Notes under the pieces: model-generated
The model's input: only the letters and a program-made list of their open reading frames with translations
Told to the model about the DNA's origin: nothing
The model's database searches: none
NCBI GenBank assembly: GCA_963676415.1
Contig: OY781097.1
Location: 4,732,555-4,796,554, forward strand
Source: Bacteroidales bacterium
GTDB taxonomy: Bacteria > Bacteroidota > Bacteroidia > Bacteroidales > WRLA01
Direction: 5' to 3'
Length of the DNA stretch: 64,000 nt
Made by a program: the position numbers and the translations under genes
Part shown: positions 6,001 to 63,996 of the stretch, piece by piece
How the letters are laid out: every line of letters starts with the position of its first letter
How positions within the stretch are numbered: position 1 is the stretch's first letter

Positions 6001-9000
6001 ACAAAACCCATCGCACCGCTTCCTCAATGCAGGCGATTATGAGGTACAGCTGATTGTTACCAATGCACTGGGCTGCGTGGACACTGTGTTGCGCACTGTC
6101 AGCATCCACCTGCCCACCGCAGAATTCAGCACCGATGTGGTTTGTGCAGGCTTACCTACCACGTTCACAGATGAATCAAGTGGCAACGGCAGCGCCATTG
6201 TAAGCTGGTTCTGGGAATTTGGTGATGGCGGAACATCAACAATACCAAGTCCTTCCCATACCTATACCAACAGCGGAATCTTCCTGGTGACCCTCACAGT
6301 AACCAATAATGCCGGCTGCATTAGTCAAAAAACCGAGCAAGTCGTTGTGAACCATTTGCCTATTGCCAATTTCACACATGATGCACCAAACTGTAACGGT
6401 TTGCCTGTTCAATTTACTGATGCATCGAGTATGGCCGGAGGAACAGCCATTACAAGCTGGAACTGGGATTTCGGTGACGGATTTACCAGCACCGAACAAA
6501 GCCCAAGTCATCTGTATGAGGCCGCAGGAAGCTACTTTGTTGTTCTGACGGTGGAAGGAGCCAATGGCTGTGCCGATGACACTACCATGACGGTTACCAT
6601 AAACCCAACACCTGATGCAAACTTTGTTTATAATATCGTAAACTGCGACACCTCTTATTTCACGGACATCAGTGCTCCGGGTGGTGCAAATATTATTTTC
6701 TGGGAATGGAATTTTGATGACCCGGCTTCGGGTTTCTTCAACACCTCCAATGAGCAAAACCCATGGCATGTGTACGAAACAGCCGGAACCTACAATGTTC
6801 AGCTCATCGTGACCAATACCAATTACTGTAAAGACACTATTGTTAAACCGCTGATTTTCGATCCTCCAGCAGTACCGGAATTCACCTACGATACTGTATG
6901 TTTTGGCGACAGCACGCATTTCACAAACCTTTCTACAGGTCCGAATATCCTGCTCTACGAATGGACATTCGGAGATGGATTCTTCTCCTACGACGAAAAT
7001 CCGGTACACAAATACACCGCTCCGGGCTCGTATAACGTAACTCTGCGTGTTACAAATTCAATGAGCTGTGTGGATTCCATCACACATGAGGTAATTGTTA
7101 ACCCATTGCCTGATGTGGCTTTCACAACTTCCGACAGTGTTTGCTTCGGAAATTCAGTCAATTTCTTCGATCAAACGATTCCAAATGCCGATAGTATCAG
7201 CGCATGGCTGTGGAATTTCGGCGATGGAAGCACTGCAACGGTACAAAACCCAACACACGATTACGCCAGTGGTGGCAGCTTTGTGGTAAGCCTCACCGTA
7301 ACCAACTCCAATGGCTGTGTTGATTCAGCTGTGCAGGCTGTCTTTGTCAATCCGCTGCCGGTTGCCGATTTCACTTTCGATTCGGCTTGCCTCGGCTACC
7401 CGACACAATTCTTCGATCAGTCCACATCACAATATAGCTATATCGTAAACTGGCAATGGGATTTCGGCGATGGCTCCGACACACTCGGCCTCCCGAACCC
7501 ACCGCACGTTTATGAAAACTATGGCGATTTTGATGTGACGCTTATTGTGGGCGACCTGCTCGGTTGCACCGATACAATTACAAAAGAAGTACATGTGCAT
7601 CAGCCACCAACCGCTGATTTCACGGTTTCTTCCGATACCATTTGTTTGGGCGACACCACTTTCTTCATCGACCAATCCATTGGCAACGAAGCCGGAATTG
7701 CAAGCTGGAACTGGTATTTCGGTGAGCCATCATCCGGCGCAGCCGACTCCAGCGAACTGCAAAACCCAATTCATGTCTATGATACCGCAGGAACATATTA
7801 TGTGCTGCTCATCGTAACCGACAGCAACGGCTGTGTGGGCGATATCCTGAAGCCCGTTGTGGTAAATCCAAAACCCATCGCCAACTTCACATATTCCGCA
7901 GCATGCTCCAATGAAGGTGTTGAGTTTATCGACTTATCGGCCATTAACCAGGACGAAATCGTAAGCTGGAACTGGAACTTTGGCGATGGAGAAACATCTA
8001 CGGAACAAAACCCAATACACTTTTACGACCCAACAAATGTGGATACAACATACAGCGTAACACTTACAGTACAGGCATTGAACGGATGTATCGACAGTGT
8101 AACGCAGGACGTGTCCATTACCGCGGCACCGGTTGCTGATTTCAGCTATGCCGATGCCTGCCTGGGCTATCTGGTAGATTTCACGGATCTGTCGTCCACC
8201 TACAGTGGAATGATTGTGGACTGGCAATGGGATTTCGGTGACGGGGCAACATCAAGCCAGCAGCACCCATACCATTTATATGCACTTGCCGATACTTTTG
8301 ATGTGCAGTTGATAGTGACCAATTCCTGGGGCTGCGTGGACACTACGGTGAAATCCGTCATCATCCACAATTTGCCACTGCCCGAGTTTGAAGCCGATAC
8401 CGTTTGCTTTGGCGATACCACACATTTCACTGATTTGTCCTTCTCGGAAGGCGAAGTAAGCGAATGGCTGTGGCATTTCGGTGATCCATATTCCGGCGAC
8501 AGCGACACCTCAACATTGCAGAACCCCGAGCACTGGTACACCCGTGCAGGAATTTTCAATGTAACACTGGAAGTTGCCGACACCAACGGATGCCGCACTT
8601 CAATAATGCAACAGGTACTGGTGAATCCACTGCCGGTTGCTGAATTCCATTTCGAATCAGCGACTTGCCAAAACCAGGCCATCGACTTCGAAGACCGCTC
8701 GTACAGTCCGGGAGGAGCCATACACGAATGGCACTGGGATTTCGGCGACGGAACCGTCATCACAATTTATCATCCCGGCAATCCGGATGTAAGCCATACC
8801 TACACCGAACAAGGCAACTTTACCGTTGGCCTTACCGTGGTCGATACTAACGGCTGTAGCGAATACACCGAACATTACATCACGGTATATCCGCTCCCAA
8901 CGGCCAATTTCACATTCTCGGATACCGCTTGCGAAGCCGCCCTGATTTACTTCCAGGATTCGTCCATAGCGCAAAACACTCAGCTAAAATCCTGGTTCTG

Positions 9001-10690
9001 GGACCTTAATTATCCAAACCAGTATTACAGCCCGCTGCAAAATCCATATTTTTATTATCCTGAAACCGACATGACCTACACTGTTATGCTGGCCGTTGAG
9101 GATCAGCACGGTTGTGTGGATACCATATTCAAACAGGTTTATGTGAAAAAAGGATTTGAAATCGACTTCCTTGCAGATACGGTTTGTTTTGGAACGCCGA
9201 CCAGCTTTACCGATTCGGTACTTTCGCCCACAGGTGATTCGCTGATTAACTGGAGCTGGAATTTTGGTGATGGAGCTACATCATCCGAAGAAAGCCCGCA
9301 AAACACTTTTGACAATCCCGGCATGCACTTCGTAAGCTTGCAGGCCAATAATCAGGATGGATGTCCGGCTACGGCCACCAAGGAAATCCTGGTTTATGCA
9401 TTGCCCGAACCGGCATTCCGTGCGGCGCCGGCAGGTTGCGAAGACAGCACTGTATTTGAAGACCTGAGCCTTTACCAGAGCGATTCGGTAAACAGCTGGA
9501 CATGGCGCTTTGGCGATGGAACGGACACTACCATTTTATGGCCCGACAGCCCGGATGTGTTCCATTTCTATCCACCGCAGGACAGCACTTATCTGGCAAC
9601 GCTCATCATCGAAAACAGCCGCGGCTGTATCGATTCCATCCAGCAGGATGTCGTGCGTTATCCATGCCTCTTTGTTGATTTTGGCGAAGAAGGCGTGCTC
9701 TGCGACGGTCAAACCGCTACTTTCCGCGATTACAGTTTCACAGGAAGTGAAGATGTGCAAATGCTCGACTGGGAATGGTTCTTCGGCGATGGCAATTCGG
9801 TTTATTATACCGAGCAGCAGGATACACTTTACCACACCTATGCCGCTCCGGGCACATACATGGTAGAACTGGTCATCCGTGCCGAAGGAAATAACGGCAT
9901 CGTACGCGATACTTCACGCCATGAAGTGACCGTTTACAACTCGCCCCAGTCTGAGTTTAATTTCGATAAGTTCTGCGTGAAAGCACCCACGGAGTTTACC
10001 GATTACTCCTTCGTTGACTTTGGCGAAATCGACCGCTGGTACTGGAATTTCGGTGATGGATTTACCAGCCGCCTGCAAAACCCGGAACATGTTTACTTCC
10101 AGGATTCGGTTTATGAAGTGCAACTCGTAACCCAAACCACCGACGGCTGTACCGATACGGTAAAACATAACTTAGAAATCCACGCACTGCCGGAAGTTTA
10201 TCTGGTACCTGATGAAAACAGGGGCTGCGGTGACTCGCTCCGCTTTACTTTCCGCGATACCAGCGCGCAGCAACATGAAGTTTATCGCTGGACTTTTGAT
10301 GATGACGAATTCGTCAATACGGATGAAGACTTCATTAGCAAACTGTTCTATTATGGCGAACACGAAGTAAAACTCAGGGTAACATCGCCATGGGGCTGTA
10401 TCAACAGGGATTCTGCCAGCATTGAGCTCACAAGAAAACCCATTGCCGGCTTCCATCTCTACTCCGACAGCATCAGCATTCTGAACCCACGAGTTCAGAT
10501 TACCGACGAATCGGAAAGCATGGACGCCCTGATCGAATACTGGCACTACAGCTTGGGCAACGGATACGATACCCTGACGCGCACTTTCGACTATATGTAC
10601 AGCGATACAGGACATTACCATATCGAACAAATTGTTCAGGATTATAACGGCTGCCGCGATTCCATCTCGCATAAAGTCTTTATTTATCCC
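2..10690 (+). repeat. Tandem array of PKD-module coding repeats (~260 nt unit), with a higher-order ~760-nt three-module unit between ~3320 and ~6870
   Basis: The GDG-TST-QNP-H-Y motif recurs about every 85-90 codons. Module subtypes recur in the fixed order A-B-C, starting near 3320, 4080, 4840, 5600 and 6350. Confidence 0.85.
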
Positions 10691-10972
10691 GAGCTCACTT
10701 TCCATATTGCAAATGCGTTTACACCCAACGGAGACGGAGTTAATGCCACCTTCAAGCCGCAAGGCAGATATTTTGAAGATAAAGCATATAACTTCCAGAT
10801 TTTCAACCGATGGGGACAGTCCATTTTTGAAACATTTGACTATAATGAAGCCTGGGACGGAACCTTCAATGGCGATCCGGCCCCGGTTGGACTGTACACA
10901 TGGGTAATTACGGTTACAGATACCTGGGGTGTGACCTATACGTACGATGGCTATGTAGTTCTCATTAGATAG
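2..10972 (+). CDS. Giant secreted PKD-repeat protein, 5'-truncated by the window edge, with a T9SS type-B (gliding-motility-associated) C-terminal sorting domain
   Basis: The reading frame is open from base 2; residues before the GTG at 32 read YTFANWGIHQ, the tail of another PKD module. There are roughly forty tandem ~85-90 aa modules with the signature W-x-W-(D/N)-F-G-D-G-x-T-S-x-x-Q-N-P-x-H-x-Y ... G-C-x-D. The last ~90 aa carry NAFTPNGDGVNATF...FNRWGQ...WDG, typical of type-B T9SS CTDs. Confidence 0.9.
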   Translation, partial: YTFANWGIHQVELTVTDENGCLGTIQHNVVVDSLPFPGFTYDNQCVGEVINFTDTSHANGSPIVSWYWDFGDGHYSTQQNPTHIFTTHSPFTVSLTVTSARGCSDSISQVVLMNPPFDIDFSADSVCFGLETHFNDELLTPGTVIVSREWDFGDGNTGSGEDPTHTYALAGNYNVMLTAIDDWGCIKIVNHVIPVYPAPEPDFDYTTPCEGLATEFTDLTPVTGSGIASRLWKFGDGTTSTEQNPNHTYLNDDIYEVWLIIENGNGCIDSVSQNVPVYSVPVADFNTTHNCIGQPTHFIDNSSSPVGNIISWAWDFGDGNTSTDQNPTHYYAAAGDFTVELIVSNINSCTDTISKTVSIYPPPTADFSAAPLCLNNPTQFTDLSSAPGGNIVSWSWDFGDGYSSNDQSPAHTYAASGDYDVHLIVTDEEGCTNDTTKTITVYHLPAPNFTYINACENDTTYFFDASAPNGGSIASRLWKFGDGTTSTDENPWHIYSLGGIYDVTLIISNSNGCTDSIVKQVEVLPPPMADFNADSVCFGEPTHFFDNSSSTSGNINSWVWTFGDGDGSTDQNPVHTYAAQGIYDVQLIVTNLNGCRDTVVKEVVVHQLPVVDFESDEACLGDSTHFTDLSTSGGNLSSWFWEFGDGNTSTVQNPTHLFASAGTFNTTLTVSDEFGCQSDHSENVIVHPLPVAAFSFNSVTCSNDTIFFTDESSSAAGISSWLWDFGDGATSTAQNPWHIFPSGGSNFVTLTVTDGNGCVNSITHELYIAPPPEADFEYSGTCASMTTQFTDLSSTIEGTLIYWHWNFGDPASGIYNTSELQNPTHIYTTEGDYQVQLIVRNTAGCEDTLVQTITIDPDPDADFTFNNPCAHDTSYFADASAPATAPINSWFWEFGDGHTSTDQNPWHLFTTSGQYMVSLTVTDDNGCANTETKMVVIYPLPTALFQVEPSCAGLITHFTDYSNGGGADITNWYWDFGDPTSGANNYSTAQNPTHIFSTAGLYNVTLTVVNAHGCSNATTLPIEVLNAPVADFEADTACKGTPTYFNNLSYDIDDVIVSWYWDFGDGSTSTLQYPYHTYDEAGTYIVSLVVTNSIGCTDNIAKEVVVHHNPEVEFSYTDPSCFGDSIQFFDETYFTGSNMVDSWLWYFGDGDSSLLENPKHYYELPGMYVVTLQVYDTSGCFGSKQEEIYIHEPPAANFSWIVQNCDSAYFTDLSYDSDTTIVHWQWNFGDPASGSNNVSNDTNPVHQYLVGGDYEVNLIVTSAHGCIDSITKTVNVSMPDAGFTVDSATLCKNTATQFYDNSNPNGDFFVSWLWDFGDGTTSTQENPTHNYANAGNYYVSLLVTNSQGCEDTETHSVQINHGPLVDFEYSYPNCLGDSIHFTDLTNTYGGVPITSWFWDFGDGNTSTEQNPGHIYTSSGTYNVSLRVNDASNCPDYLVKPVYVSPLPMAHFEHNITGCDTVQFTDLSTDIDTTIVAWYWNFDDPTSGYNNISTNQHPVHVFHNAGDYDVSLIVTNALGCQDTINQTVNIYRPEADFSISSDSSCMNIEVYFTDESETYGDVITSWLWEFGDGQTSTAPNPSHSYNDYGVFDVSLTITTAYGCSDVKVLPLYIYPGPDAEFSMEYPSCLDDSIQFTNESSGAGNMPLVGFYWEFGDGSTSTEENPAHEYVMAGEYFVTLEVTDERGCTSQISHLLTVSERPMAGFNYDVHLCDTVFFEDASEDNDTTIVAWFWDFGDPLSIWNNQSTLQNPSHAYHEEGDYTVTLIATNAYGCRDTVQDIITIIRPEADFTVNDDSVCLGTAIAFEDISDPHGGNIIDWFWDFDDGNTANVHNISHVYDEPGTYYVSLTITNSLGCQDNKVKPVHVFYPPVAQFTYDDVTCLGDSIHFENESYTTGVNSIVSYNWNFGDGSTSTEENPVHYFDDPGSYFITLTITDDAGCIDVASEYIEIYPAPFGNFNFQTVDCDTTYFTDETIDNNAAITSWYWDFDDPASGWQNYSTAQNPSHRFLNAGDYEVQLIVTNALGCVDTVLRTVSIHLPTAEFSTDVVCAGLPTTFTDESSGNGSAIVSWFWEFGDGGTSTIPSPSHTYTNSGIFLVTLTVTNNAGCISQKTEQVVVNHLPIANFTHDAPNCNGLPVQFTDASSMAGGTAITSWNWDFGDGFTSTEQSPSHLYEAAGSYFVVLTVEGANGCADDTTMTVTINPTPDANFVYNIVNCDTSYFTDISAPGGANIIFWEWNFDDPASGFFNTSNEQNPWHVYETAGTYNVQLIVTNTNYCKDTIVKPLIFDPPAVPEFTYDTVCFGDSTHFTNLSTGPNILLYEWTFGDGFFSYDENPVHKYTAPGSYNVTLRVTNSMSCVDSITHEVIVNPLPDVAFTTSDSVCFGNSVNFFDQTIPNADSISAWLWNFGDGSTATVQNPTHDYASGGSFVVSLTVTNSNGCVDSAVQAVFVNPLPVADFTFDSACLGYPTQFFDQSTSQYSYIVNWQWDFGDGSDTLGLPNPPHVYENYGDFDVTLIVGDLLGCTDTITKEVHVHQPPTADFTVSSDTICLGDTTFFIDQSIGNEAGIASWNWYFGEPSSGAADSSELQNPIHVYDTAGTYYVLLIVTDSNGCVGDILKPVVVNPKPIANFTYSAACSNEGVEFIDLSAINQDEIVSWNWNFGDGETSTEQNPIHFYDPTNVDTTYSVTLTVQALNGCIDSVTQDVSITAAPVADFSYADACLGYLVDFTDLSSTYSGMIVDWQWDFGDGATSSQQHPYHLYALADTFDVQLIVTNSWGCVDTTVKSVIIHNLPLPEFEADTVCFGDTTHFTDLSFSEGEVSEWLWHFGDPYSGDSDTSTLQNPEHWYTRAGIFNVTLEVADTNGCRTSIMQQVLVNPLPVAEFHFESATCQNQAIDFEDRSYSPGGAIHEWHWDFGDGTVITIYHPGNPDVSHTYTEQGNFTVGLTVVDTNGCSEYTEHYITVYPLPTANFTFSDTACEAALIYFQDSSIAQNTQLKSWFWDLNYPNQYYSPLQNPYFYYPETDMTYTVMLAVEDQHGCVDTIFKQVYVKKGFEIDFLADTVCFGTPTSFTDSVLSPTGDSLINWSWNFGDGATSSEESPQNTFDNPGMHFVSLQANNQDGCPATATKEILVYALPEPAFRAAPAGCEDSTVFEDLSLYQSDSVNSWTWRFGDGTDTTILWPDSPDVFHFYPPQDSTYLATLIIENSRGCIDSIQQDVVRYPCLFVDFGEEGVLCDGQTATFRDYSFTGSEDVQMLDWEWFFGDGNSVYYTEQQDTLYHTYAAPGTYMVELVIRAEGNNGIVRDTSRHEVTVYNSPQSEFNFDKFCVKAPTEFTDYSFVDFGEIDRWYWNFGDGFTSRLQNPEHVYFQDSVYEVQLVTQTTDGCTDTVKHNLEIHALPEVYLVPDENRGCGDSLRFTFRDTSAQQHEVYRWTFDDDEFVNTDEDFISKLFYYGEHEVKLRVTSPWGCINRDSASIELTRKPIAGFHLYSDSISILNPRVQITDESESMDALIEYWHYSLGNGYDTLTRTFDYMYSDTGHYHIEQIVQDYNGCRDSISHKVFIYPELTFHIANAFTPNGDGVNATFKPQGRYFEDKAYNFQIFNRWGQSIFETFDYNEAWDGTFNGDPAPVGLYTWVITVTDTWGVTYTYDGYVVLIR

Positions 10973-11019: not shown

Positions 11020-11252
11020 TTTTCAGGATATTCGCCTCGGGACTTACAGCTCGAAAACCCACAATAAAATTCAGGGAATCTTTCACTTTTACCATAATTT
11101 CGCATCTAATCGAAATAGATTGTTTATATTTGAGCATGAATTTTTTTAGAAGTTGATGCTGTAGGTGATGTAATAGTAATTGGGGTGGGTTTATAGGCAG
11201 GAGTTGTAGGAAAAAATAAGGGCTGACACACCAATGAAATTGAGAATTAGAA

Positions 11253-19100: not shown

Positions 19101-19129
19101 GGGTCGAATGAAAATTCGACCCTTTTTTT
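19101..19129 (+). terminator. Rho-independent terminator of the aminotransferase gene
   Basis: GGGTCGAAT-GAAA-ATTCGACCC followed by T7. Confidence 0.8.
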
Positions 19130-19217
19130 ATCGTGCATGCAATCCGCATTCTTTCAATTCGGGGTTTTCCCACCACCATCTTCCGGCGCGGACATCCTCT
19201 CCGGGTTCAATGGCACG
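19126..19217 (-). repeat. Orphan duplicate of the last ~90 nt of cysH (left copy of a 92-bp direct repeat)
   Basis: 89 of 92 positions are identical to 20159-20250, which holds the real cysH 3' end and stop. Confidence 0.9.
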
Positions 19218-19249
19218 AAAATTATCATTCGCTCATTTTTGAATCCATA

Positions 19250-19552
19250 TCATGTCACTGACAATCCAAGATTTTTACCCAGTCCTTCCTCGAAAATCTT
19301 AAACAAGGTAGATATTTGAATATCAATCTTCCCGTTTTCCAATCTTGAAATATAGCTTTTCTTTGTCCCCGTTTTATGCGCAAGATCCTCCTGAGTCATT
19401 CTGGCTTCTCTTCTTGCTTCCCGCACCATTTCACCAATAATAAATGATTTAGCCCGTGCTTCAAAAGCATCTCTTTTTTCTGTGCCTACAGCACCATATT
19501 TTATATTCAGTAGCTCATCAAATGTTTTTGCCTCTCTAATACTTTTCATCAT
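19250..19552 (-). CDS. XRE-family HTH antitoxin (HigA-like)
   Basis: EARMTQEDLAHKTGTKKSYISRLENGK helix-turn-helix. It overlaps the 3' end of the upstream toxin-like ORF, a toxin-first arrangement. Confidence 0.8.
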   Translation of the reverse strand: MMKSIREAKTFDELLNIKYGAVGTEKRDAFEARAKSFIIGEMVREARREARMTQEDLAHKTGTKKSYISRLENGKIDIQISTLFKIFEEGLGKNLGLSVT

Positions 19553-20066
19553 TCAACCCTTTCTTTTTAAAATATTCTTCCTTCAATCTTAAGGCATTAA
19601 TAATCTCACGTTTAGGAGTTTTTCTGCTCTTTTTTTGAAACCCTTGAAACAGAATCACAAGTTTTCCTTCATCAAAGCAACTAAAAATCCGATAACTATT
19701 ATTCCCTTTGCTAATCCGAATTTCATACAATCCTTGTGTTCCTTCAATGTGTTTTAAAAACCTTTGCGAAATCCTATCCACTGTTCTTACAATCTTAACC
19801 TGCTTTATTCATGAAATTTCGTCATGAGCGTTCAAACCGCAATAAGAGAAAGGAAGCGCAGGTTTTTGGCGCACAGGAATAGCCGTAGCTATTTTGAGCA
19901 CCAAAAAGATAGCATTCCTTTCTATTGCAGCGGTTTGGTCGCGTAATAGAATATTTTGTGAATAATGCAGGTTAAAGACATACTCAATTTTTTCCTGAGT
20001 CTGCTCATCAAGAGTAAGATAAAAGTCAATAAAATAATTCTCATAAAAACAGATCTCCCTAAGCAT
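19536..20066 (-). pseudogene. RelE/ParE-superfamily (phage Gp49-like) toxin gene interrupted by a MITE
   Basis: The N-terminal part MLREICFYENYFIDFYLTLDEQTQEKIEYVF (20066 downward) and the C-terminal part KIVRTVDRISQRFLKHIEGTQGLYEIRISKGNNSYRIFSCFDEGKLVILFQGFQKKSRKTP are in the same frame. They are separated by a 173-bp element plus a 4-bp duplication (177 nt), and the element contains a TGA. Confidence 0.75.
19799..19971. mobile_element. 173-bp MITE with imperfect terminal inverted repeats and a TTAA target duplication
   Basis: The ends CCTGCTTTATTCATGAAATTTCG (19799 onward) and CCTGCATTATTCACAAAATATTC (reverse complement of the other end) match at 12 of the first 13 positions. It is flanked by TTAA at 19795-19798 and 19972-19975. 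A second copy lies at 63861-63996. Confidence 0.75.
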
Positions 20067-20102
20067 ACCACAAAGTTAACAAATTTGTTAACTATATCAA
20101 AG

Positions 20103-20136
20103 AAAAAAAACCTGCTCCAAATTTTGTTGAGCAGGT
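20103..20136 (-). terminator. Hairpin terminator just downstream of cysH, located inside the inserted cassette
   Basis: CCTGCTC...GAGCAGG stem flanked by an A-run and a T-run, so it could act in both directions. On the minus strand it follows the cysH stop by ~25 nt. Confidence 0.6.
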
Positions 20137-20158
20137 TTTCAGGAATATTTTGAAAATC

Positions 20159-20250
20159 TTTTATCGCGCATGCAATCCACATTCTTTCAATTCGGGGTTT
20201 TCCCACCACCACCTTCCGGCGCGGACATCCTCTCCGGGTTCAATGGCACG
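20159..20250 (-). repeat. Right copy of the 92-bp direct repeat (functional cysH 3' end)
   Basis: See 19126-19217. Confidence 0.9.
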
Positions 20251-42013: not shown

Positions 42014-43123
42014 ATGCACTTAAAAAAACTCAAACTGGCCCAATTTAAAAACTGCTTGGAAGCAGATCTGGAATTATCAGAAAAAATCAATTGCTTTGTG
42101 GGATACAATGGCGCAGGCAAAACCAATATCCTCGATGCCATTTATTACCTTTCTTTTTGCAAAAGCTATTTCAATCCTTCCGACAGCCAGAACATCAAGC
42201 ATGGGGAAGATTTTTTTGCCATTCATGGCTATTACGAAAACAGCGCGGGCGAGGAAGACCTGGTGCAGTGCATACAGAAAAAAGGCCAGCCCAAGCAGTT
42301 CCGCAAAAACAAAAAAGACTACCAGCGCCTGGCCGATCATATCGGGCTTATCCCTTTGGTAATGATCAGCCCTTACGACCGCGACCTCATCAACGATGGC
42401 TCGGAGCTGCGCCGGAAATATATGGACAGCGTTATCGCACAATTTGATAAAGATTATCTGGACAATCTTATCCGCTATAATAAAAGTGTACAGCAAAGAA
42501 ATATCTTACTGAAACATTTTGCCACACAGCAGCAATTCGACCAAAACCTGCTTGAGCCCTGGGATCAGCAACTGATTGTGCTGGGAGAAAAAATCCATGA
42601 AGTGCGCAAGAAATTTATTGAAGAATTCGCGCCGGTTTTTCAGGATTATTACCGCTTTATTTCCGGGCAACAGGAGGAAGTAAGCATAGAATACAGTTCA
42701 CAGCTTTTGCAGCACAGCACCGAAGAACTGCTGCGCAAAAACCTGGAGCGCGACCGCATATTGAAATTTACCGGAAGCGGCGTACACCGCGACGACCTGA
42801 ATTTCAGGATTTCGGGATATCCTCTCAAAAAATTCGGCTCCCAGGGCCAGCAAAAATCCTTTGTTATTGCCATTAAGCTGGCACAATACAAGCACACCCG
42901 GATCATCAAAAATTTCAAACCGATTATTTTACTGGATGATATTTTTGACAAACTGGACGACAAACGGGTGGACCAGATTATTGAAATGGTGAGCAATGAC
43001 GGTTTTGGCCAGATTTTCATCAGCGACACACAGCGCGAACGCGTAGAACGGATTTTCCAACACCACAAAGTAGCGCACAGGATATTTTCGGTGGATGGAG
43101 GAATAATTCAGAATGAAAAATAG
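42014..43123 (+). CDS. recF: DNA replication and repair protein RecF
   Basis: Walker A GYNGAGKTNILDAIY, SMC-like signature GSQGQQKS, and Walker B ILLDDIFDKLD. Confidence 0.9.
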   Translation: MHLKKLKLAQFKNCLEADLELSEKINCFVGYNGAGKTNILDAIYYLSFCKSYFNPSDSQNIKHGEDFFAIHGYYENSAGEEDLVQCIQKKGQPKQFRKNKKDYQRLADHIGLIPLVMISPYDRDLINDGSELRRKYMDSVIAQFDKDYLDNLIRYNKSVQQRNILLKHFATQQQFDQNLLEPWDQQLIVLGEKIHEVRKKFIEEFAPVFQDYYRFISGQQEEVSIEYSSQLLQHSTEELLRKNLERDRILKFTGSGVHRDDLNFRISGYPLKKFGSQGQQKSFVIAIKLAQYKHTRIIKNFKPIILLDDIFDKLDDKRVDQIIEMVSNDGFGQIFISDTQRERVERIFQHHKVAHRIFSVDGGIIQNEK

Positions 43124-43194
43124 AATTAGGCCTCCACATACCAAACAAAGATGCCGGAGCGTTGTTATTTCTCAAACAAGAAACGCGTAAAAAA

Positions 43195-43425
43195 ATGCTC
43201 AAATTACTCCTTCTGACTACAGTTCTTCTCGGAATTGCCTTTGCCGGCATTGCCATTAAGATGTTTGTGTTTAAAAACGGTGTTTTTACCAAGTCATGCA
43301 GCTCTCACGACGACAGTGCAGGGAAACATGGCGGTTGTGTGTGCGGCGGCACGGATAAATCGAAATGCAAAAACAAGAACAAGCATAAAGAGTTCAACAT
43401 TAAGGTGGAGCCCTATCGCGGATAA
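43195..43425 (+). CDS. Small membrane protein with a Cys-rich tail
   Basis: One N-terminal TM helix (LLLLTTVLLGIAFAGIAI), then CSSHDD...GGCVCGG...KC. The ATG at 43195 is preferred to the TTG at 43162. Confidence 0.45.
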   Translation: MLKLLLLTTVLLGIAFAGIAIKMFVFKNGVFTKSCSSHDDSAGKHGGCVCGGTDKSKCKNKNKHKEFNIKVEPYRG

Positions 43426-43553
43426 ACCTTGCCTAAGAAGTATCTGCTGTTTTTAAGCTGTTTTCTCATTTAGAAAAACCTTTGTATTGGCGTTGCAATG
43501 CCGTTGCAACACCGTTTCAACAGCATTGCAAGGCCAATGCAGATTATATAAAC

Positions 43554-43592
43554 GAAAGATTTACACCCATTCTTCCTTTAGCAATTCTCCCT
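43554..43592. repeat. Left copy of a 39-bp direct repeat (orphan copy of the 3' end, including the stop, of the 4Fe-4S gene)
   Basis: 37 of 39 positions are identical to 44119-44157. The reverse complement encodes GELLKEEWV-stop. Confidence 0.85.
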
Positions 43593-44118
43593 CCTGTTTT
43601 CCAGATAAGACACCAGTTTTTAACTTTAGGCATCTGTAAACTCTAAAAATATTGAATATAAAGCATGTCTTCGACCACTGTTTTTATTCCTTTTGTCTTG
43701 GCACAAAAGGAACCAAAAAGCCAAGTCAAAACAATGCTTCCCCCCGCTCTTCCCGATACCAAGAATTTCCAATCAAAGTAGTGCCTCGTGCCTCGGCAAA
43801 GCTGTTGCCCTTTGATGGAAATTCTAAGCATCGGGAATTCACCCTCATCCGGCCCGCTGTTTTGACAGGCCGCCCCACTGTCTAAACGAGGATGATTCTT
43901 GTTTTAAAAACAATTGGATTAAAATTTTCGTCTAACGTAAAATCAATAGACGTATGCGCATAACAGGAGAATAATCCTGATTGCACAAATATCTTTATTG
44001 CCAACAAATAGCTATTAAAATGAAATCAAGACGCCCAAACTCAAAGCATTAGCCTCATTAAAATATTGATATTAAGATAATTAACTTTTTGACTATTTAT
44101 TATCCAAAAAACAGAAAA
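43593..44118. mobile_element. Element E1: 526-bp non-coding insert (conserved core plus AT-rich arm)
   Basis: Homologous along its whole length to 45897-46397: the core is nearly identical and the arm roughly two-thirds identical by eye. It is bracketed by the 39-bp direct repeat. Confidence 0.7.
43665..43905 (-). ncRNA. Candidate structured RNA (conserved core of E1); strand tentative
   Basis: ~241 nt are nearly identical to 45969-46209, with a 1-nt indel that breaks any common reading frame. There is a 26-27-nt imperfect hairpin (43752-43778 with 43810-43835) and a 9-bp hairpin (TCCTTTTGT/ACAAAAGGA). Two plus-strand A.C/C.A mismatches become G.U on the minus strand. Confidence 0.35.
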
Positions 44119-44157
44119 GAAAGATTTACACCCATTCTTCCTTCAGCAATTCCCCCT
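44119..44157. repeat. Right copy of the 39-bp direct repeat (functional 3' end of the 4Fe-4S gene)
   Basis: See 43554-43592. Confidence 0.85.
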
Positions 44158-45028
44158 GCAAGCCAACAATAATGGATTTCACCGGCACTTTTCGGTTGGC
44201 ATTGGCCTGTGCAGCTTTCACGATATGGAGCAAACCGCTGCAACAAGGCACCTGCATCATCATCACTGTGATGGTATTCACTTTTGCGTCATCAATCATC
44301 ATGCGCACTTTTTCGATATAAGAATCTATGCCCTGATCCAGCTTGGGGCAAAGCACGGCCAGACTTTTGCCTTTAAGGTAATCCTGATGGAAATTTCCCA
44401 TAGAAAACGCAACACAATCGGCTGCAAGCAAAAGGTCGGAGTTTTGAAAATAGCTGGCATTGGGCTGCACGAGATGCATTTGCACCGGCCACTGCTTTAG
44501 TTGGCTAGGCTGCGTTCCCAAGGCAGCAGCCGGCACATCCGGATCAATATTTCCAAAGTCCATACTTTTTGAGCCCGGACATCCCCCTCCTTGGTGATGA
44601 TGCATTTGAGCGACTTGCTGAACGGCTTGTGGTTTTTTGCCACTGTTATGCACCTCACGGATGACTTCTTTTACATCAAAATCAATTTTTCCTTCATTTT
44701 CGAGCAAATAATTTACGGCCTCTTTGAGATAAACCGTTTCATTATGATCTTTCAGGTGCTTCATATGTGCCAAGACCGTATTGCGGCCTTTTTGGATCAT
44801 CAAGGCAATTACCTCTGTTTCGCTATAGGGCTGTGCTTCACGCTTTTCAATACTGATGGCGTCCTGCGGACAATGTCCCAGGCAGGCACCCAACCCATCG
44901 CACATCAAATCACTAACTAAGCGCGCTTTTCCATCAATGATCTGCAAAGCACCTTCATGGCATCCGGGCACACAAAGTCCGCAACCATTACATTTTTCTT
45001 CGTCGATATGAACAATTTCTCTTTCCAT
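44126..45028 (-). CDS. 4Fe-4S dicluster (ferredoxin-type) domain protein
   Basis: The N-terminal CNGCGLCVPGC ... CDGLGACLGHCP gives two CxxCxxCxxxCP-type clusters. The C-terminal domain has additional cysteines (VPCCSG). Confidence 0.75.
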   Translation of the reverse strand: MEREIVHIDEEKCNGCGLCVPGCHEGALQIIDGKARLVSDLMCDGLGACLGHCPQDAISIEKREAQPYSETEVIALMIQKGRNTVLAHMKHLKDHNETVYLKEAVNYLLENEGKIDFDVKEVIREVHNSGKKPQAVQQVAQMHHHQGGGCPGSKSMDFGNIDPDVPAAALGTQPSQLKQWPVQMHLVQPNASYFQNSDLLLAADCVAFSMGNFHQDYLKGKSLAVLCPKLDQGIDSYIEKVRMMIDDAKVNTITVMMMQVPCCSGLLHIVKAAQANANRKVPVKSIIVGLQGELLKEEWV

Positions 45029-45083
45029 GGCGTATCATTTTTTTAATTTTGAGACAAATATATTGTGCCCCAGAATTAAAAAC

Positions 45084-45099
45084 TGTAACCTAAGTTACA
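45084..45099. promoter_or_regulatory. Candidate Crp/Fnr-family operator, TGTAAC-N4-GTTACA
   Basis: Perfect 6-4-6 palindrome in the 106-bp divergent region between the 4Fe-4S gene and the Crp/Fnr gene. A second palindrome, GGTAT-TTTG-ATACC, lies at 45104-45117. Confidence 0.45.
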
Positions 45100-45134
45100 A
45101 TTTGGTATTTTGATACCGAAATTAACAAAATATT

Positions 45135-45812
45135 ATGACAACTGCCGCATATCTCAGCCAATGCATTCTTTTTAAGGGATTAAAGGAGCATGAAATCGAA
45201 CTCCTTTTAAATCAAATCCATTATCAGGAAAAGAGTTTTAAAAGGGAATCTCTCATCGCACAAAGCGGAGATGAAACCACCGCCCAACTGATTCTTTTGA
45301 GCGGCAGTGTACGCGGTGAAATGATGGACTTCAATGGAAAAGCCATTAAAATTGAAGATATAAAAGCCGTACGTATGCTTGCTCCTGCATTTTTGTTTGG
45401 GAAGCAGAATCATTATCCGGTTTCCATTATTGCCAACGAAGAAAGCCGGGTTCTCCACATCCCCAAAAATGATTTCCTGAAATTGCTTGGCTCCAACGAG
45501 CTGATTTTAAGGAATTACTTAGATAATATTTCCAGCCGGGCCCAATTTTTATCTGAAAAAATTAAATTCCTGTTTTTCCAGGACATCAAGGGGAAACTGG
45601 CACATTATTACATGACAAAACTCAGGGAAAGCAGTTCTCAAACCATTAGAATGGAAAGTTCGCAGGAACAATTGGCGGTACTTTTTGGCGTTAGCCGTCC
45701 GGCATTGGCGCGGAGTATCAAAGAGTTGCGCGAAGATAAAATCATTGAAACACATGGAAAAGAAATCCGGATCCTGAATGTTCAGGCCTTAAAAGCCTTG
45801 GTCAGGGAATAG
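45135..45812 (+). CDS. Crp/Fnr-family transcriptional regulator
   Basis: N-terminal cNMP-binding-like beta-roll and a C-terminal HTH (SQEQLAVLFGVSRPALARSIKELRED). Confidence 0.85.
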   Translation: MTTAAYLSQCILFKGLKEHEIELLLNQIHYQEKSFKRESLIAQSGDETTAQLILLSGSVRGEMMDFNGKAIKIEDIKAVRMLAPAFLFGKQNHYPVSIIANEESRVLHIPKNDFLKLLGSNELILRNYLDNISSRAQFLSEKIKFLFFQDIKGKLAHYYMTKLRESSSQTIRMESSQEQLAVLFGVSRPALARSIKELREDKIIETHGKEIRILNVQALKALVRE

Positions 45813-45896
45813 TCCTAACCGCCAATTTTATAAGTCAATACAATACCCGAACCTCCACCGGGCATAATTGCCGGGGCAAAACTGAATTTCCTCTTT
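45740..45896. repeat. Left copy of a 157-bp direct repeat (functional Crp/Fnr 3' end plus an orphan PAP2 3' end)
   Basis: 154 of 157 positions are identical to 46398-46554. Confidence 0.9.
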
Positions 45897-46397
45897 CCAA
45901 ATTTCCTTATAAGACAGCCATTTGTAAAATAGAGTGTTAGTATTTCATATGGATACTGGATATCAATTATGCCTTCGACCGCTGTTTTATTCCTTTTGTC
46001 TTGGCACAAAAGGAAGCAAAAAGCCAAGTCAAAACAAAGCTTCCCCCCCGCTCTTCCCGATGCCAAGAATTTCCAATCAAAGTAGTGCCTCGTGCCTCGG
46101 CAAAGCTTTAGCCCTTTGATGGAAATTCTAAGCATCGGGAATTCACCCTCATCCGGCCCGCTGTTTTGACAGGCCGCCCCGCGGTCTAAACGAGGATGAT
46201 TTTTGTTTTGCAAACATTTTGACAAGATAAAAAATAATAGAAGTGATCTGATTTAAAACCCTTCATTATTAATACGTATGGCTGACAATTATCACTTAAG
46301 ATGAAATCAAAAACCATATTCTTACAGTTTAGAGCTATAAAATATTAATAATGAACAACTAATTTTATAATTGTATCAAATACAGAAAACACAAAAG
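45897..46397. mobile_element. Element E2: 501-bp non-coding insert, sibling of E1
   Basis: Same architecture and orientation as E1, bracketed by the 157-bp direct repeat. Confidence 0.7.
45969..46209 (-). ncRNA. Candidate structured RNA (conserved core of E2); strand tentative
   Basis: See 43665-43905. In this copy the A.C position of the long hairpin is a G-C pair. Confidence 0.35.
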
Positions 46398-46554
46398 AAT
46401 CATCGAAACACATGGAAAAGAAATCCGGGTCCTGAATGTTCAGGCCTTAAAAGCCTTGATCAGGGAATAGTCCTAACCGCCAATTTTATAAGTCAATACA
46501 ATACCCGAACCTCCACCGGGCATAATTGCCGGGGCAAAACTGAATTTCCTCTTT
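46398..46554. repeat. Right copy of the 157-bp direct repeat (orphan Crp/Fnr 3' end plus the functional PAP2 3' end)
   Basis: See 45740-45896. Confidence 0.9.
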
Positions 46555-47324
46555 TCGGCATCCATTCTTCCCGAAGCACGCTTATGAACAAAACGGCCAA
46601 TAGCATAGCCCAGAACAGAACCTGCAAGCACATCGGAAGCCCAGTGTTTGTTTCCGTATATGCGCGAGATGGCCGTAAGCCCTGCCAGACCGTAGGCGAT
46701 CCCTCCTACCCATTTATTTTCAGAATATTCGGAGGCTACAACCGCAGCCACAGCAAACGAAAGCGAAGAATGCCCGGAAGGAAAGGACAAAAAATCCGTA
46801 CTCAATGAAGGACCGCCCCAGATATAGGCATCCGGAGGCTCATGCTCGTTGGGGCGGTGACGATGAAAAAACATTTTGAAGCCTCCTGTAAAAACCGTGG
46901 TAACCATAAAAGCCCGAAAAGCAGTGAGGCTGGTAAAAGCAAGGCGGTCATTTTTCCCGATTCGGGCAGCGGTATAAGTCAGCCCCATCGCAGGCAGCAC
47001 ATATTGAAACGACCACATATCATTCAATAAATTCTCACTTTGCTGTGTGATAAAGGGCGAATCATGATCAAGCAAAAAAGTATGGATATCTTCATCAAAA
47101 ACCATCAATCCGCCGGTTACCGCTGCAAAGCCACCAAATTTTATCCATGATTTGCCGTCCCATTTCAGGGGAGCCAGACCCGTTTGAATAAAATCACCCC
47201 CAAAATCCTGAAACCATTGCCCGTTAATTCGTACCGGATAATGTACAGCACTGTCCTGAGCTTTTGCAGTTGTACGTGTTAGTCCCAGCAAAAGGATCAA
47301 AAAAAACAAATTCCTTAACCTCAT
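46473..47324 (-). CDS. PAP2-superfamily phosphatase
   Basis: Signal peptide plus the tripartite PAP2 signature (HRHRP, PSGHS, SRIYGNKHWASD). Confidence 0.85.
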   Translation of the reverse strand: MRLRNLFFLILLLGLTRTTAKAQDSAVHYPVRINGQWFQDFGGDFIQTGLAPLKWDGKSWIKFGGFAAVTGGLMVFDEDIHTFLLDHDSPFITQQSENLLNDMWSFQYVLPAMGLTYTAARIGKNDRLAFTSLTAFRAFMVTTVFTGGFKMFFHRHRPNEHEPPDAYIWGGPSLSTDFLSFPSGHSSLSFAVAAVVASEYSENKWVGGIAYGLAGLTAISRIYGNKHWASDVLAGSVLGYAIGRFVHKRASGRMDAEKRKFSFAPAIMPGGGSGIVLTYKIGG

Positions 47325-50581: not shown

Positions 50582-50863
50582 TCAGTGCTTTTAGCATGTT
50601 CACTCTGCAAAATTAATAAAATTGGTTTGCAAAGCGCTTCTGTGAATAACTTTGGGATAAGTTAAAAAGACTTAAAGCTTTGGATTGCAGGTATTGAAAG
50701 CCCATAATTATCGGCCCAGGCAACATTCCATAAAGAAGCAAGTCCTGAACTGCCTTTCCTGGCCGCGCAGCATCAAGCTTGCCCTAATTCCTAATTGTGC
50801 ATTTTTTTAGTTCAACTCTATGTGCATTAGGAATGCTTATTGGAAAGTTTCTCAAAAGCTGCT

Positions 50864-50900
50864 CCCCGTTCCCGCGCGTGTCCTCACGCGCGGCTTAACG
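50864..50900. repeat. REP-like hairpin unit upstream of the transposase fragment
   Basis: CCGCGCGTG-TCCT-CACGCGCGG (50872-50893). A related unit lies at 56406-56442, and related inverted units lie at 51123-51148 and 57113-57159. Confidence 0.65.
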
Positions 50901-50922
50901 GATAAACCGCTATCTTTAGCCC

Positions 50923-51111
50923 ATGAGTCGCAACTATAAATTTCATAATCCAGAGGCTGTGTATTTTATTGGCTTTGCTGTTGTTGCGTGGATAGATGTT
51001 TTTACGAGGATCGAAGTTTCCCAAAATCCAGTCGAAGAAGGCCTGATGTTTTCAGTAGTGCATAGGATTATGCAGAAAGAAAGGGATACCCAAAGATGTT
51101 ATTGTGGTTGA
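50923..51111 (+). pseudogene. Fragment of an IS200-like Y1 transposase of the REP-associated (RAYT) type
   Basis: MSRNYKFHNPEAVYFIGFAVVAWIDVFTR matches the conserved N-terminus of Bacteroidetes Y1/RAYT-like transposases. The ORF then degenerates and stops at 62 aa, before the HUH and catalytic Tyr regions. Confidence 0.6.
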
Positions 51112-51154
51112 CCTTTGTGCAGTACCGCGCTTGAGGACATGCGCGGTAGCTGGG
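51065..51154. repeat. Left copy of a ~90-bp diverged direct repeat (transposase-fragment tail plus REP-like hairpin)
   Basis: Roughly 87% identical by eye to 57055-57144. Contains the hairpin TACCGCGC-N10-GCGCGGTA (51123-51148). Confidence 0.7.
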
Positions 51155-51631
51155 GAAGAAATTGCAGAAACACGAATGAACATTGTAGTGGGATTTTGCA
51201 CCCACTGTGGGGCCAGGATGCGGCTCGTGGAAATCATCCCCGAATCATTCCATCAGCGCATCCGGGCGCCGGATGCAAGCTGAGAAAATCCGCATGCTTT
51301 ATTGTTTTCCTTCTGCCCCTGCAATGCAGGACTGATATGGTTATGCCAAAGCCCCACAAAATGGACTGTGGCAGGCATCATATCTTGACAAAACGTTCAT
51401 TTGAATTATTGCAAACCAAAGCTTTTCGGCTGAAAATGGCCTGTTTTCCCTGCCCTTAAGGTATTTGGCAGAAAATACCGCAAAAATTGATTCCCCAATA
51501 TATTTGTAACCCGGATTTCCCGAATGGCTCGGGACAGGCTCTTCAACACAAAGCACACCCGCCCCGAGTAATTCGTGGGTATTCCGGCTTAGGCCGGAAA
51601 ACGTTGCTTAATTGTTAGCTGTTAGGGCTTT

Positions 51632-55865: not shown

Positions 55866-56405
55866 GGTGTTTGTTTTTTTAACCTTGCAGGTAACTCCCG
55901 CATATAAGAACCCCCAATTACCATTACATCGCCTTTGTCCGCAGCTGGTATTTGCCTATCAGGCTTTATTTCAACAAAATTAGTATGGGCGCATGCCGGT
56001 TTCATATGCTTTTTCTTTGTTTCTCAACAAATTTAGATAATATTGTCTAATTTCCAAGGATGATTTCTGCAAATCTTTCATTTTTTCCACGCAAAATATT
56101 TTGCTTTGACACATTAATAAGCTGCACTTTTGGCTTCTTCCCTGCCCGAACCGAAACGAAATGAAATGAAGCCTAAACCATGCTGCTTGTGAAACGAACA
56201 TATTTCATAAAAATGCCACGATCCTGTTGTGCTTAGCCCATGTGCATTATAAAATGTTCGTAAGCTAAAAAACCTTAACCTAAATTTATCCAAAATCGCT
56301 TTCGTAGCCGTTTTAATAAACGGTTATAACCGGATATAAGCGTTTATTAAAACGGATAAGCCCGCCTGTTTTTGGCAAAAATGCCGGATTCCGGCTAAGC
56401 AAACC

Positions 56406-56442
56406 CCGTTCCCGCTCGTGTCCTCACGCGTGGCTTAGCAAG
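56406..56442. repeat. 37-nt REP-like unit flanked by a 16-bp direct repeat
   Basis: CCGTTCCCGCTCGTGTCCTCACGCGTGGCTTAGCAAG lies between two copies of TCCGGCTAAGCAAACC (56390-56405 and 56443-56458). Confidence 0.7.
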
Positions 56443-57054
56443 TCCGGCTAAGCAAACCAATACCTTCCGCAAGGCACAAAAGCAGCTTTCTTTCAACAGC
56501 TCTTGTTGCCTTGATATTTTCATGCGCATCAAAAATTATTTCTACGACTATGATCATCAATCTAAATACTTGAAGTAAATCCAACAAGACCTTAGCAATT
56601 ATTAAAAGCATGCGGGATTACGGCAATTTTGTAAGGCAAATTTTTACCGATTTTTTCGGTAATTTCCCGCAAAACCCTGATTATCCCTACAGGGGTTTTC
56701 CTGCTACCATCGCTATACCATCGCGCTACCAAGACGCTGCAAATACTTTGCGGGCAGCCGGCTGCTGCGGGCTTGCTTCGGGCAGATATTCTGTAAATAT
56801 ACTAATTAGAGTTTGTCCACAGAGTCGAGAGTTTGCTCTATAAAGTTCAAATTCAAGGCGTGTGAAAAATCCAAACCGGATAATACTCAAGTATTTGAGG
56901 ATTTGGATTTTGAGCAACAACGCAGAAGTTGGACTTTATAGACGAACTCCAATTAAGGCAAATTAGACCTACTCATCGGATGACTGGGAGTCATCCGATG
57001 AGTAGCGTTATCCGATGGGTGCTATGAATCATATGAGGTATCACGGAATATCAG

Positions 57055-57159
57055 GGATTATGCAGAAAAAAAGCGATACACGAAGATGTTATTGTGGTTG
57101 ATATTTAAGCAGTACCACGCGTGAGGACACGCGCGGTAGCTGGGACACGCGCGGTAGCT
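57055..57159. repeat. Right copy of the ~90-bp diverged repeat plus a duplicated REP half-site
   Basis: 57055-57144 matches 51065-51154. GGACACGCGCGGTAGCT occurs twice in tandem (57124-57140 and 57143-57159). Confidence 0.7.
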
Positions 57160-63822: not shown

Positions 63823-63860
63823 AATTCAGCATTAATATTAAAGCTTTTTTTTGAGTTAAG

Positions 63861-63996
63861 CCTGAATAATTCACAAAATATCTATTACGGGCACAAACCG
63901 CTGCAATAGAAAGGAATGCTATCTTTTATTGCGTTTTGTACTTGGTCACTGAGCTTGTCGAATGTGCTCATGACGAAATTTCATGAATTAATCAGG
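63861..63996. mobile_element. Second, shorter copy (136 bp) of the MITE seen at 19799-19971
   Basis: Shares the left ~55 nt (CCTGAATAATTCACAAAATATCTATTACG..CAAACCGCTGCAATAGAAAGGAATGCTATCTTTT) and the right ~33 nt (GCTCATGACGAAATTTCATGAAT.A..CAGG), in the opposite orientation to the first copy. TTAA lies 1 nt before its left end. The right flank is cut by the window end. Confidence 0.65.

Follow-up and report, generated by a model that had tools for sequence, protein, structure and literature searches.

The stretch analysed here (the window) comprises 64,000 nucleotides of a Bacteroidales bacterium (GTDB lineage WRLA01; assembly GCA_963676415.1, contig OY781097.1, positions 4,732,555 to 4,796,554 of the forward strand) and is ordinary chromosome, encoding IF-2, NusA, Lon, EF-G and similar proteins. 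We have focused on E1, a 526-bp insert (43593-44118) located beside the 3' end of a 4Fe-4S ferredoxin-domain gene. E1 belongs to a low-copy family of mobile elements, here called E, that are non-coding and non-autonomous, and the 39-bp direct repeat that brackets it is a genuine target-site duplication. The features of the locus are the following.

43554..43592, no strand: left copy of the E1 target-site duplication (37/39 against 44119-44157), a non-functional duplicate of the stop-proximal end of the 4Fe-4S gene
43593..43624, no strand: conserved left terminus of E1, (C)CTGYTTTYCRGAWAAGAYACC..TTTTTAAC, from junction comparison and profile search
43649..43918, minus strand: conserved structured core of E1, a probable non-coding RNA, from copy identity and RNA fold
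43919..44106, no strand: AT-rich variable arm of E1 (27.8% G+C), missing, like all other parts of the element, from the empty site
44107..44118, no strand: weakly conserved, A-rich right terminus of E1, from junction comparison; holds an inverted partial match to the left terminus
44119..44157, no strand: right copy of the E1 target-site duplication, which forms the working 3' end of the 4Fe-4S gene and matches exactly the lone copy at the empty site of a relative (locus L006)
44126..45028, minus strand: 4Fe-4S ferredoxin-domain gene whose 3' end is duplicated, from its open reading frame (ORF), Pfam Fer4 families and the orthologues P0001 and P0002

Empty and filled E1 sites

The loci of two relatives, ERZ21878204 (L006) and OZ245940.1 (L007), were fetched through the 4Fe-4S orthologues P0001 and P0002, two proteins from public assemblies that are 98% identical. 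In L006 the 39-mer was present once (10872-10910) with no insert, and the gene was immediately followed by what, in the window, stands to the left of 43554. The whole 526 bp of E1 were missing from this site, which was otherwise colinear. In the independently assembled L007, E1 was present between two copies of the repeat, which differed by the same two mismatches (C>T). Because L006 is empty and L007 is filled with the same mismatches, chance and assembly artefact are ruled out for E1. Both the insertion and its 39-bp target-site duplication are thus genuine, and the search for an empty site suggested by an earlier, sequence-only reading of the window gave a clear answer. The insert and mismatches found in L007 further imply that E1 predates the split of the window strain from OZ245940.1.

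The two repeat copies are identical at 37 of 39 positions, both mismatches being T in the left copy and C in the right copy, exactly the bracketing of a 526-bp insert that had been read from the window. The description of the repeat as the last 39 nt of the gene was not strict, since in the right copy the 29 terminal coding nt and the stop codon (44126-44128) are followed by 7 nt of 3' flank. The insertion point lies 7 nt 3' of this stop codon, and the 4Fe-4S gene stays intact despite the insertion. Depending on where the ends are placed, the duplication measures 30-43 bp, with microhomology at the left ('CCCT') and right ('G/AAAG') junctions.

The insert contains only ORFs of 40-77 amino acids, and the frames that are open across the E1 core are frameshifted in two other copies of the family, E2 and L004. 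On these grounds E1 is non-coding, as had been proposed. Its G+C content is 36.9%, against 42.4% in the window, with 46.4% in the core.

Two observations concern the immediate surroundings and the L007 orthologue of E1. The loop of the core's first hairpin carries in L007 (~11140-11165) a 23-nt insertion (TCTTTCGACAGGCTCAAGAACCA, E1 orientation) that looks like a slipped partial duplication. To the left of E1 in the window, a long imperfect palindrome (43478-43547) separates a convergent 87-amino-acid ORF from the 4Fe-4S gene and is also found in the empty site. It is likely a bidirectional terminator, and it gave spurious microRNA matches in Rfam on both strands.

The E family and its structured core

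The second element of the window, E2 (501 bp), has the same orientation as E1 and is bracketed by 157-bp repeats identical at 154 positions.

45740..45896, no strand: left copy of the 157-bp E2 duplication, where the Crp-like gene 45135..45812 (plus strand) has its functional 3' end
45897..46397, no strand: E2, the second element copy, missing from both relatives
46398..46554, no strand: right copy of the 157-bp E2 duplication, where the PAP2 gene 46473..47324 (minus strand) has its functional 3' end

The E2 site was empty in L006 and L007. In both loci the 157-bp sequence is single-copy and the Crp-like and PAP2 genes are convergent and 2 nt apart, so that the E2 duplication supplied each of these genes with an intact 3' end of its own. 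The view of E2 as a second member with the layout of E1 was borne out, the E1 (43649-43918) and E2 (45953-46222) cores being 92% identical. Other copies were found in the loci listed below.

L003 (the same as L010): insert of 834 bp, including a nested miniature inverted-repeat transposable element (MITE); duplication of 222 bp, 215/222 identical
L009: insert of 483 bp; exact duplication of 12 bp (TAGCGCACAATC) spanning the stop of a PKD gene
L004: right arm stops early and adjoins another small repeat element; no recognisable flanking duplication
L001: copy cut by the locus end

Of the four bounded copies, E1, E2 and L009 are therefore ~0.5 kb in size, and L003, with its nested MITE, is 0.83 kb. 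Empty sites were available for E1 and E2. The duplications measured 12, 39, 157 and 222 bp at four targets that are unrelated in sequence, meaning that their length is not a property of the element but varies between 12 and 222 bp from copy to copy.

A core 24-mer, scanned against one genome per species, matched only OZ245940.1, where the four matches corresponded to the E1 orthologue, L003, L004 and L001. The L009 copy was obtained by searching protein databases with the translated minus-frame pseudo-ORF of the core, which also recovered L003; the plus-frame pseudo-ORF recovered no copies from protein databases, and a representative protein library searched with a core pseudo-ORF added only a spurious repetitive protein of 4504 amino acids. 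Three copies were positioned at ~1.14, 2.06 and 2.38 Mb of the 5.1-Mb OZ245940.1 chromosome. Since family copies are spread more than 1 Mb apart, E1 and E2 do not represent a local segmental duplication, which the search for dispersed copies had been expected to reveal if it were so. At least five copies, 82-92% identical, are present per genome.

Searching the window and the fetched loci with a profile of the conserved module gave no further copies, and BLASTN of E1 against phage and plasmid collections gave no match. Three exact-pattern scans of viral contigs produced two matches (L011 and L012), both in a protein-coding stretch unrelated to E, and the single match of a 20-mer scan of metagenomes (L005) was a chance one in unrelated sequence. 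As far as exact-word searches tell, the E family appears to be confined to one Bacteroidales species.

A module of ~333 bp (82-92% identical) is common to all copies and consists of the left terminus, a diverged spacer and the ~270-nt core. The left terminus starts within ~1 nt in four independent insertions (E1, E2, L003 and L009), all copies align from module position 2 in the profile search, and the terminus pattern occurred only in E copies in the window and the eight loci searched. The core is 90-93% identical across copies and the arms are near random in identity, the AT-rich arm being homologous in E1, L003 and L004, marginal in E2 and unrelated in L009 and L001. At the right end there is a weakly conserved, purine-rich motif (AAAACAGAAAAG in E1, counting G44119; AAAACACAAAAG in E2; AAAACATAAGAC in L009). 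The four bounded copies are all full length, from left terminus to right end. The conserved parts are thus the left terminus and the core, and not two symmetric ends as initially described.

The element has a recurrent position relative to genes. In E1, E2, L003 and L009 the strand that would be RNA-sense is co-directional with the host gene and just downstream of it, the element starting 7, 75, 240 and 0 nt past the upstream gene's stop, respectively. L004 lies between divergent genes.

We have folded the core with RNA and DNA parameters. With the former, the minus strand reached -104.8 kcal/mol (z -7.0) and the plus strand -74.4 kcal/mol (z -3.7); with the latter, the values were -55.1 and -47.6 kcal/mol. 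In each of the five complete copies, the minus-strand fold contained 12-18 G·U pairs and was free of A·C 1x1 mismatches, with the mirror-image A·C mismatches appearing in the plus-strand fold. A decaying DNA palindrome should show the G·U and A·C kinds equally. Among six core sequences, pairs were kept by 16 one-sided changes and one compensatory change, the sequences being too alike for a covariation test, and most pair breaks fell in the most diverged copy. No window hit reached the gathering score in Rfam 15, which includes group II introns, HEARO/omega RNA and 6S, and at E values up to 10 the 43400-46600 interval returned noise only. The scan for sigma-70 promoters and terminators was uninformative for a Bacteroidales genome. 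Based on the fold model, the core is a probable non-coding RNA read on the minus strand.

Resident copies tolerate both the 23-nt insert in the core hairpin loop (L007) and the nested MITE in the arm (L003), which suggests that conservation of the core reflects the needs of spreading and not a host function. Insertion guided by the RNA, of the bridge or guide type, was considered and rejected: matches of the elements to their own targets were 8-10 nt, no longer than those to the targets of other copies, and the core stays 90-93% identical across different targets.

Some of the copies contain or adjoin other repeats. The MITE nested in the L003 arm (~4235-4510) is of the classical kind: its terminal inverted repeats are 12 bp long (TAGAGGTCAGTA), its duplication is 8 bp (AATTTCGT), and it includes a hairpin of sequence GGCAAATGCGGC...GCCGC. 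Directly beside the truncated arm of L004 there is a related hairpin element. A dispersed repeat of ~150 nt, present in the window (56802-56949) and twice in L003 (3809-3958 and 4865-5014) with 89-91% identity, sits within the 222-bp target duplication of L003. In L009, the flank just past the 12-bp duplication, within the PKD gene end (5807-5823), resembles the core segment GGCCGGATG.GGGTGAA, matching its own core (6062-6078) at 15 of 17 positions and the E1 core at 16 of 17 (rough chance estimate ~4e-4).

Possible routes of insertion

The window holds a second insert with a long target duplication, for which no empty site was seen. This is a 941-bp toxin-antitoxin cassette (19218-20158), composed of a Gp49/HigB-like toxin and a helix-turn-helix (HTH) antitoxin and flanked on either side by a 92-nt direct repeat (89/92) that corresponds to the stop-proximal end of a 3'-phosphoadenosine 5'-phosphosulfate (PAPS) reductase gene (window 19126-20250). 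The cassette is placed between convergent genes and is co-directional with the upstream one. It must have moved as DNA, because its own promoter/operator and an upstream terminator are included. The toxin gene is split by a ~180-nt repeat element, which occurs at 19799-19976 and, in inverted orientation, at 63856-63996; a fourth relative (L013) has the same cassette arrangement with an intact toxin. Comparison of the ends revealed no termini common to E and the cassette. Two other inserts served as controls: the MITE nested in L003 was ordinary, with its 8-bp duplication and 12-bp inverted repeats, and a 4.5-kb block of secreted-protein genes had no flanking duplication.

The explanation that we prefer, with a probability of roughly 0.5, is a DNA-level insertion at widely and variably staggered nicks by machinery encoded elsewhere. 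As DNA, the element would be joined to single-strand breaks, one in each target strand, with a spacing that would differ per event (12-222 bp), and repair (fill-in) synthesis over the interval would yield the duplication. The breaks and joins might be made by a loose-geometry transposase, as in the insertion sequences (IS) IS1634/IS1549, or by the pathway known as 'insertion with long target duplication'. The cis-acting part would be the conserved 333-bp left module, i.e., the precise left terminus and the 270-nt core, and the core would most likely act, or be recognised, in the form of a folded minus-strand RNA. Near gene ends, long duplications may survive because each flanking gene then gets an intact 3' end. 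We favour a DNA-level event because the element has two defined ends and none of the four bounded copies falls short of full length, because the toxin-antitoxin cassette travelled as DNA and because precedent has been published. The difficulty of assigning a mobilisation mechanism, already recognised from the sequence, is one that we share.

Several results weigh against this explanation. The part best conserved is a large internal core with an RNA-type strand asymmetry, and a plain DNA transposon needs neither. The four bounded copies are all oriented alike relative to the upstream gene. The ends are unequally conserved, and the terminal inverted repeats that had been proposed from the E1 ends appear marginal in these alignments: the left end and the reverse-complemented right end match at 12 of 15 positions in E1 (shuffle p 0.026), and the E1 left end gave p 0.013 against the L003 right end, but the match was not significant in E2 (p 0.13) or L009 (p 0.14). 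The autonomous partner that had been looked for did not turn up, and no transposase, reverse transcriptase or integrase is encoded in the window. Finally, if a single machinery had moved both E and the toxin-antitoxin cassette, it would not be end-specific, leaving the precise ends of E unexplained.

A retroposition resembling that of short interspersed nuclear elements (SINEs) is a serious though unlikely contender. Here, a reverse transcriptase encoded elsewhere would copy the folded minus-strand RNA at a nicked target. The transcript would begin inside the AT-rich arm or upstream of it, or else result from read-through out of the upstream gene. Copying would proceed from the conserved 3' end of the RNA (the left terminus), and a second-strand break at a variable distance would produce the duplications of 12-222 bp. 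The folds argue for an RNA, the minus strand being ~30 kcal/mol better with RNA parameters and just 7.5 with DNA parameters, with G·U pairs and no A·C mismatches, although only one pair was compensatory. Conservation of the core and one terminus is what retroposons recognised by their 3' end would show, and the duplication length varies as this route predicts; yet the 3' end of the RNA has no tail, 5' truncations were not found, E1 and E2 have a common RNA-sense 5' start (CTTTT...) and the right-end motif is kept in three copies. The RNA-sense strand being co-directional with, and just downstream of, a gene in E1, E2, L003 and L009 is also in favour of retroposition, as are the tolerance of the 23-nt core insert and the nested MITE and the suggestion that conservation serves mobility. 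On the other side stand the lack of a reverse transcriptase in the window and the movement as DNA of a toxin-antitoxin cassette with a similarly long duplication. To our knowledge, SINE-like retroposons are undocumented in bacteria, which also counts against this route.

Capture by generic host processes, without an element-specific enzyme, seems improbable to us. The candidates would be end joining into a filled-in, widely staggered break and template switching at a replication fork, and the core would be a cargo small-RNA gene kept by selection. Such a process would account for the 92-bp gene-3'-end duplication around an unrelated toxin-antitoxin cassette that has no ends in common with E, and for the microhomology at both E1 junctions. 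The literature likewise contains units without mobility genes in many phyla, with repeats that often span stop codons. However, arbitrary boundaries would be expected, whereas four insertions agree to within 1 nt in their left boundary and the right motif recurs. A passive cassette is not expected to reach at least five copies per genome with 82-92% identity, and the toxin-antitoxin cassette itself offers no empty site.

We regard single-strand transposition of the HUH/rolling-circle type (IS91, Helitron or Replitron) as very unlikely. It would provide one origin-like end, another that is loosely defined, and variable duplications, and the asymmetric ends, strand-specific structure and orientation bias of E would fit it, as would the putative remnants of a REP-associated Y1 transposase close by in the window. 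Variable duplications and 'fuzzy' right ends have been described for Replitron-1 and some Helitrons in Chlamydomonas (PMC10288648). Nevertheless, canonical HUH elements make no target duplication, the two strands of the core fold almost equally with DNA parameters, and no donor-flank sequence was found at the right ends.

The remaining explanations are hardly credible: integrase attachment sites, although the repeat lies at a gene 3' end like many integrase targets, are contradicted by four repeats unrelated in sequence and length and by the lack of an integrase in the window; diversity-generating retroelement repeats, suggested by both E1 mismatches being A in the non-coding copy and G in the gene copy (gene sense), by the lack of a reverse transcriptase in the window, by the mixed, not adenine-specific, transitions among the E2 mismatches and by an empty site indicating plain duplication; and an assembly or segmental-duplication artefact, by the agreement of two independent assemblies, the full repeat present once in the empty site and copies more than 1 Mb apart.

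Some further features of the window and of the fetched loci are worth recording. The sole transposase in the fetched loci, near E1 in L007, belongs to the IS1380 family and was rejected as a partner of E, as its ends are unrelated. The 4.5-kb secreted-protein block used as control (L002 1585-6051, the same as L007 11938-16294) contains four Por_Secre_tail genes in two ~2.17-kb tandem units and replaces ~30 bp of the window (43108-43137). L013 has a 3.7-kb block with tyrosine-decarboxylase and amino-acid-permease genes (5426-9102) that is missing from the window and begins exactly at the outer edge of a copy of the 92-nt repeat. Palindromic repeats resembling repetitive extragenic palindromes (REP-like; CCCAGCTACCGCGCGTGTCC.CACGCG.GG) form a strain-variable island (window 50860-51160 and 56400-57150; L006 3311-4791; L007 4252-4321), and an ORF at ~50926-51060 presumably resembles the N-terminal part of REP-associated Y1 transposases. 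Among the contents of this island in the relatives are nucleotidyltransferase/HEPN pairs, a TIR-domain protein, Fic and an IS1380 element. The window also has a giant ORF (32-10972; 3646 amino acids) with ~40 tandem 246-nt repeats that are PKD-like by look, and a similar PKD protein is found at the L009 locus.

Relation to known elements and significance

For 25 years, target duplications of great and variable length have stood as a curiosity without explanation in bacteria, represented by two insertion sequences and by one-off restriction-modification insertions. Insertion with long target duplication was reportedly the subject of Nobusato et al. 2000, and Furuta et al. 2010 (PMC2853133) treat it as well.

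The sequence-only reading had placed a 39-bp duplication beyond the reach of known bacterial elements. This was too strict. The direct repeats of IS1634/IS1549 range from 8 to 514 bp, with no mechanistic model (PMC2266710), and those of IS1630 from 19 to 26 bp (cited in PMC2853133). Restriction-modification units from many phyla show 'insertion with long target duplication' of 30 to >400 bp, and such duplications often span start or stop codons, with the target gene surviving as a result (PMC2853133). For short DNAs, this type of insertion was 'not yet' recognised according to Lim et al. 2012 (PMC3457768), a paper from the group (Kobayashi) that described it for restriction-modification units. 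The long duplication of E is thus unusual, though with precedent.

The long-target-duplication insertions share with E an empty site with a single repeat, duplications above 30 bp (39, 157 and 222 bp, with one copy at 12), an insert without mobility genes and repeats over stop codons that keep the flanking gene. They differ in that each such unit is protein-coding and was seen once, whereas E, 0.5 kb long and present in multiple copies, is non-coding and has a precise, conserved terminus as well as a structured core. IS1634/IS1549 resemble E in the variable length of their direct repeats (8-514 versus 12-222 bp) and in their poorly conserved ends, but they are autonomous DDE elements of 1.5-2 kb with a transposase, and most members of the family make 5-6-bp duplications. 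Moreover, E conserves an internal core and not IS-type ends, and neither an IS1634-family gene nor matching ends were found in the window or the fetched loci; a place for E in that family would take such a partner. IS1630 of Mycoplasma (IS30 family) also makes long, variable duplications, although its range is far narrower and the element is autonomous.

Among small elements, bacterial MITEs are similar to E in being non-coding, AT-rich and multi-copy, in their presence/absence polymorphism and in being presumably mobilised in trans. Their ends are conserved, however, with clear terminal inverted repeats and a short, fixed duplication, and E departs from them in duplication length, while its inverted repeats appear marginal. 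With SINEs and other retroposons lacking long terminal repeats (non-LTR), which move by target-primed reverse transcription, E has in common the variable duplications, a conserved structured body that resembles RNA, strong conservation at one end, a purine/A-rich sequence at the other and the need for a partner. Unlike in SINEs, the A-rich end is on the 5' side of the better-folding strand, no copies are 5'-truncated and no reverse transcriptase was found in the window. E is best described as the first small, repeated, non-coding element that bears the long-target-duplication insertion signature and a novel structured core.

For annotation, duplicated gene 3' ends beside such inserts should not be called pseudogenes or assembly errors. 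With filled and empty sites in sister strains, E provides a compact substrate for work on the mechanism and for the hunt for the enzyme. If the core RNA is a transposition intermediate or cofactor, E would represent a new kind of bacterial mobile element, and, should the retroposon explanation be true, it would bring eukaryote-style variable duplications and a SINE-like life cycle to bacteria.

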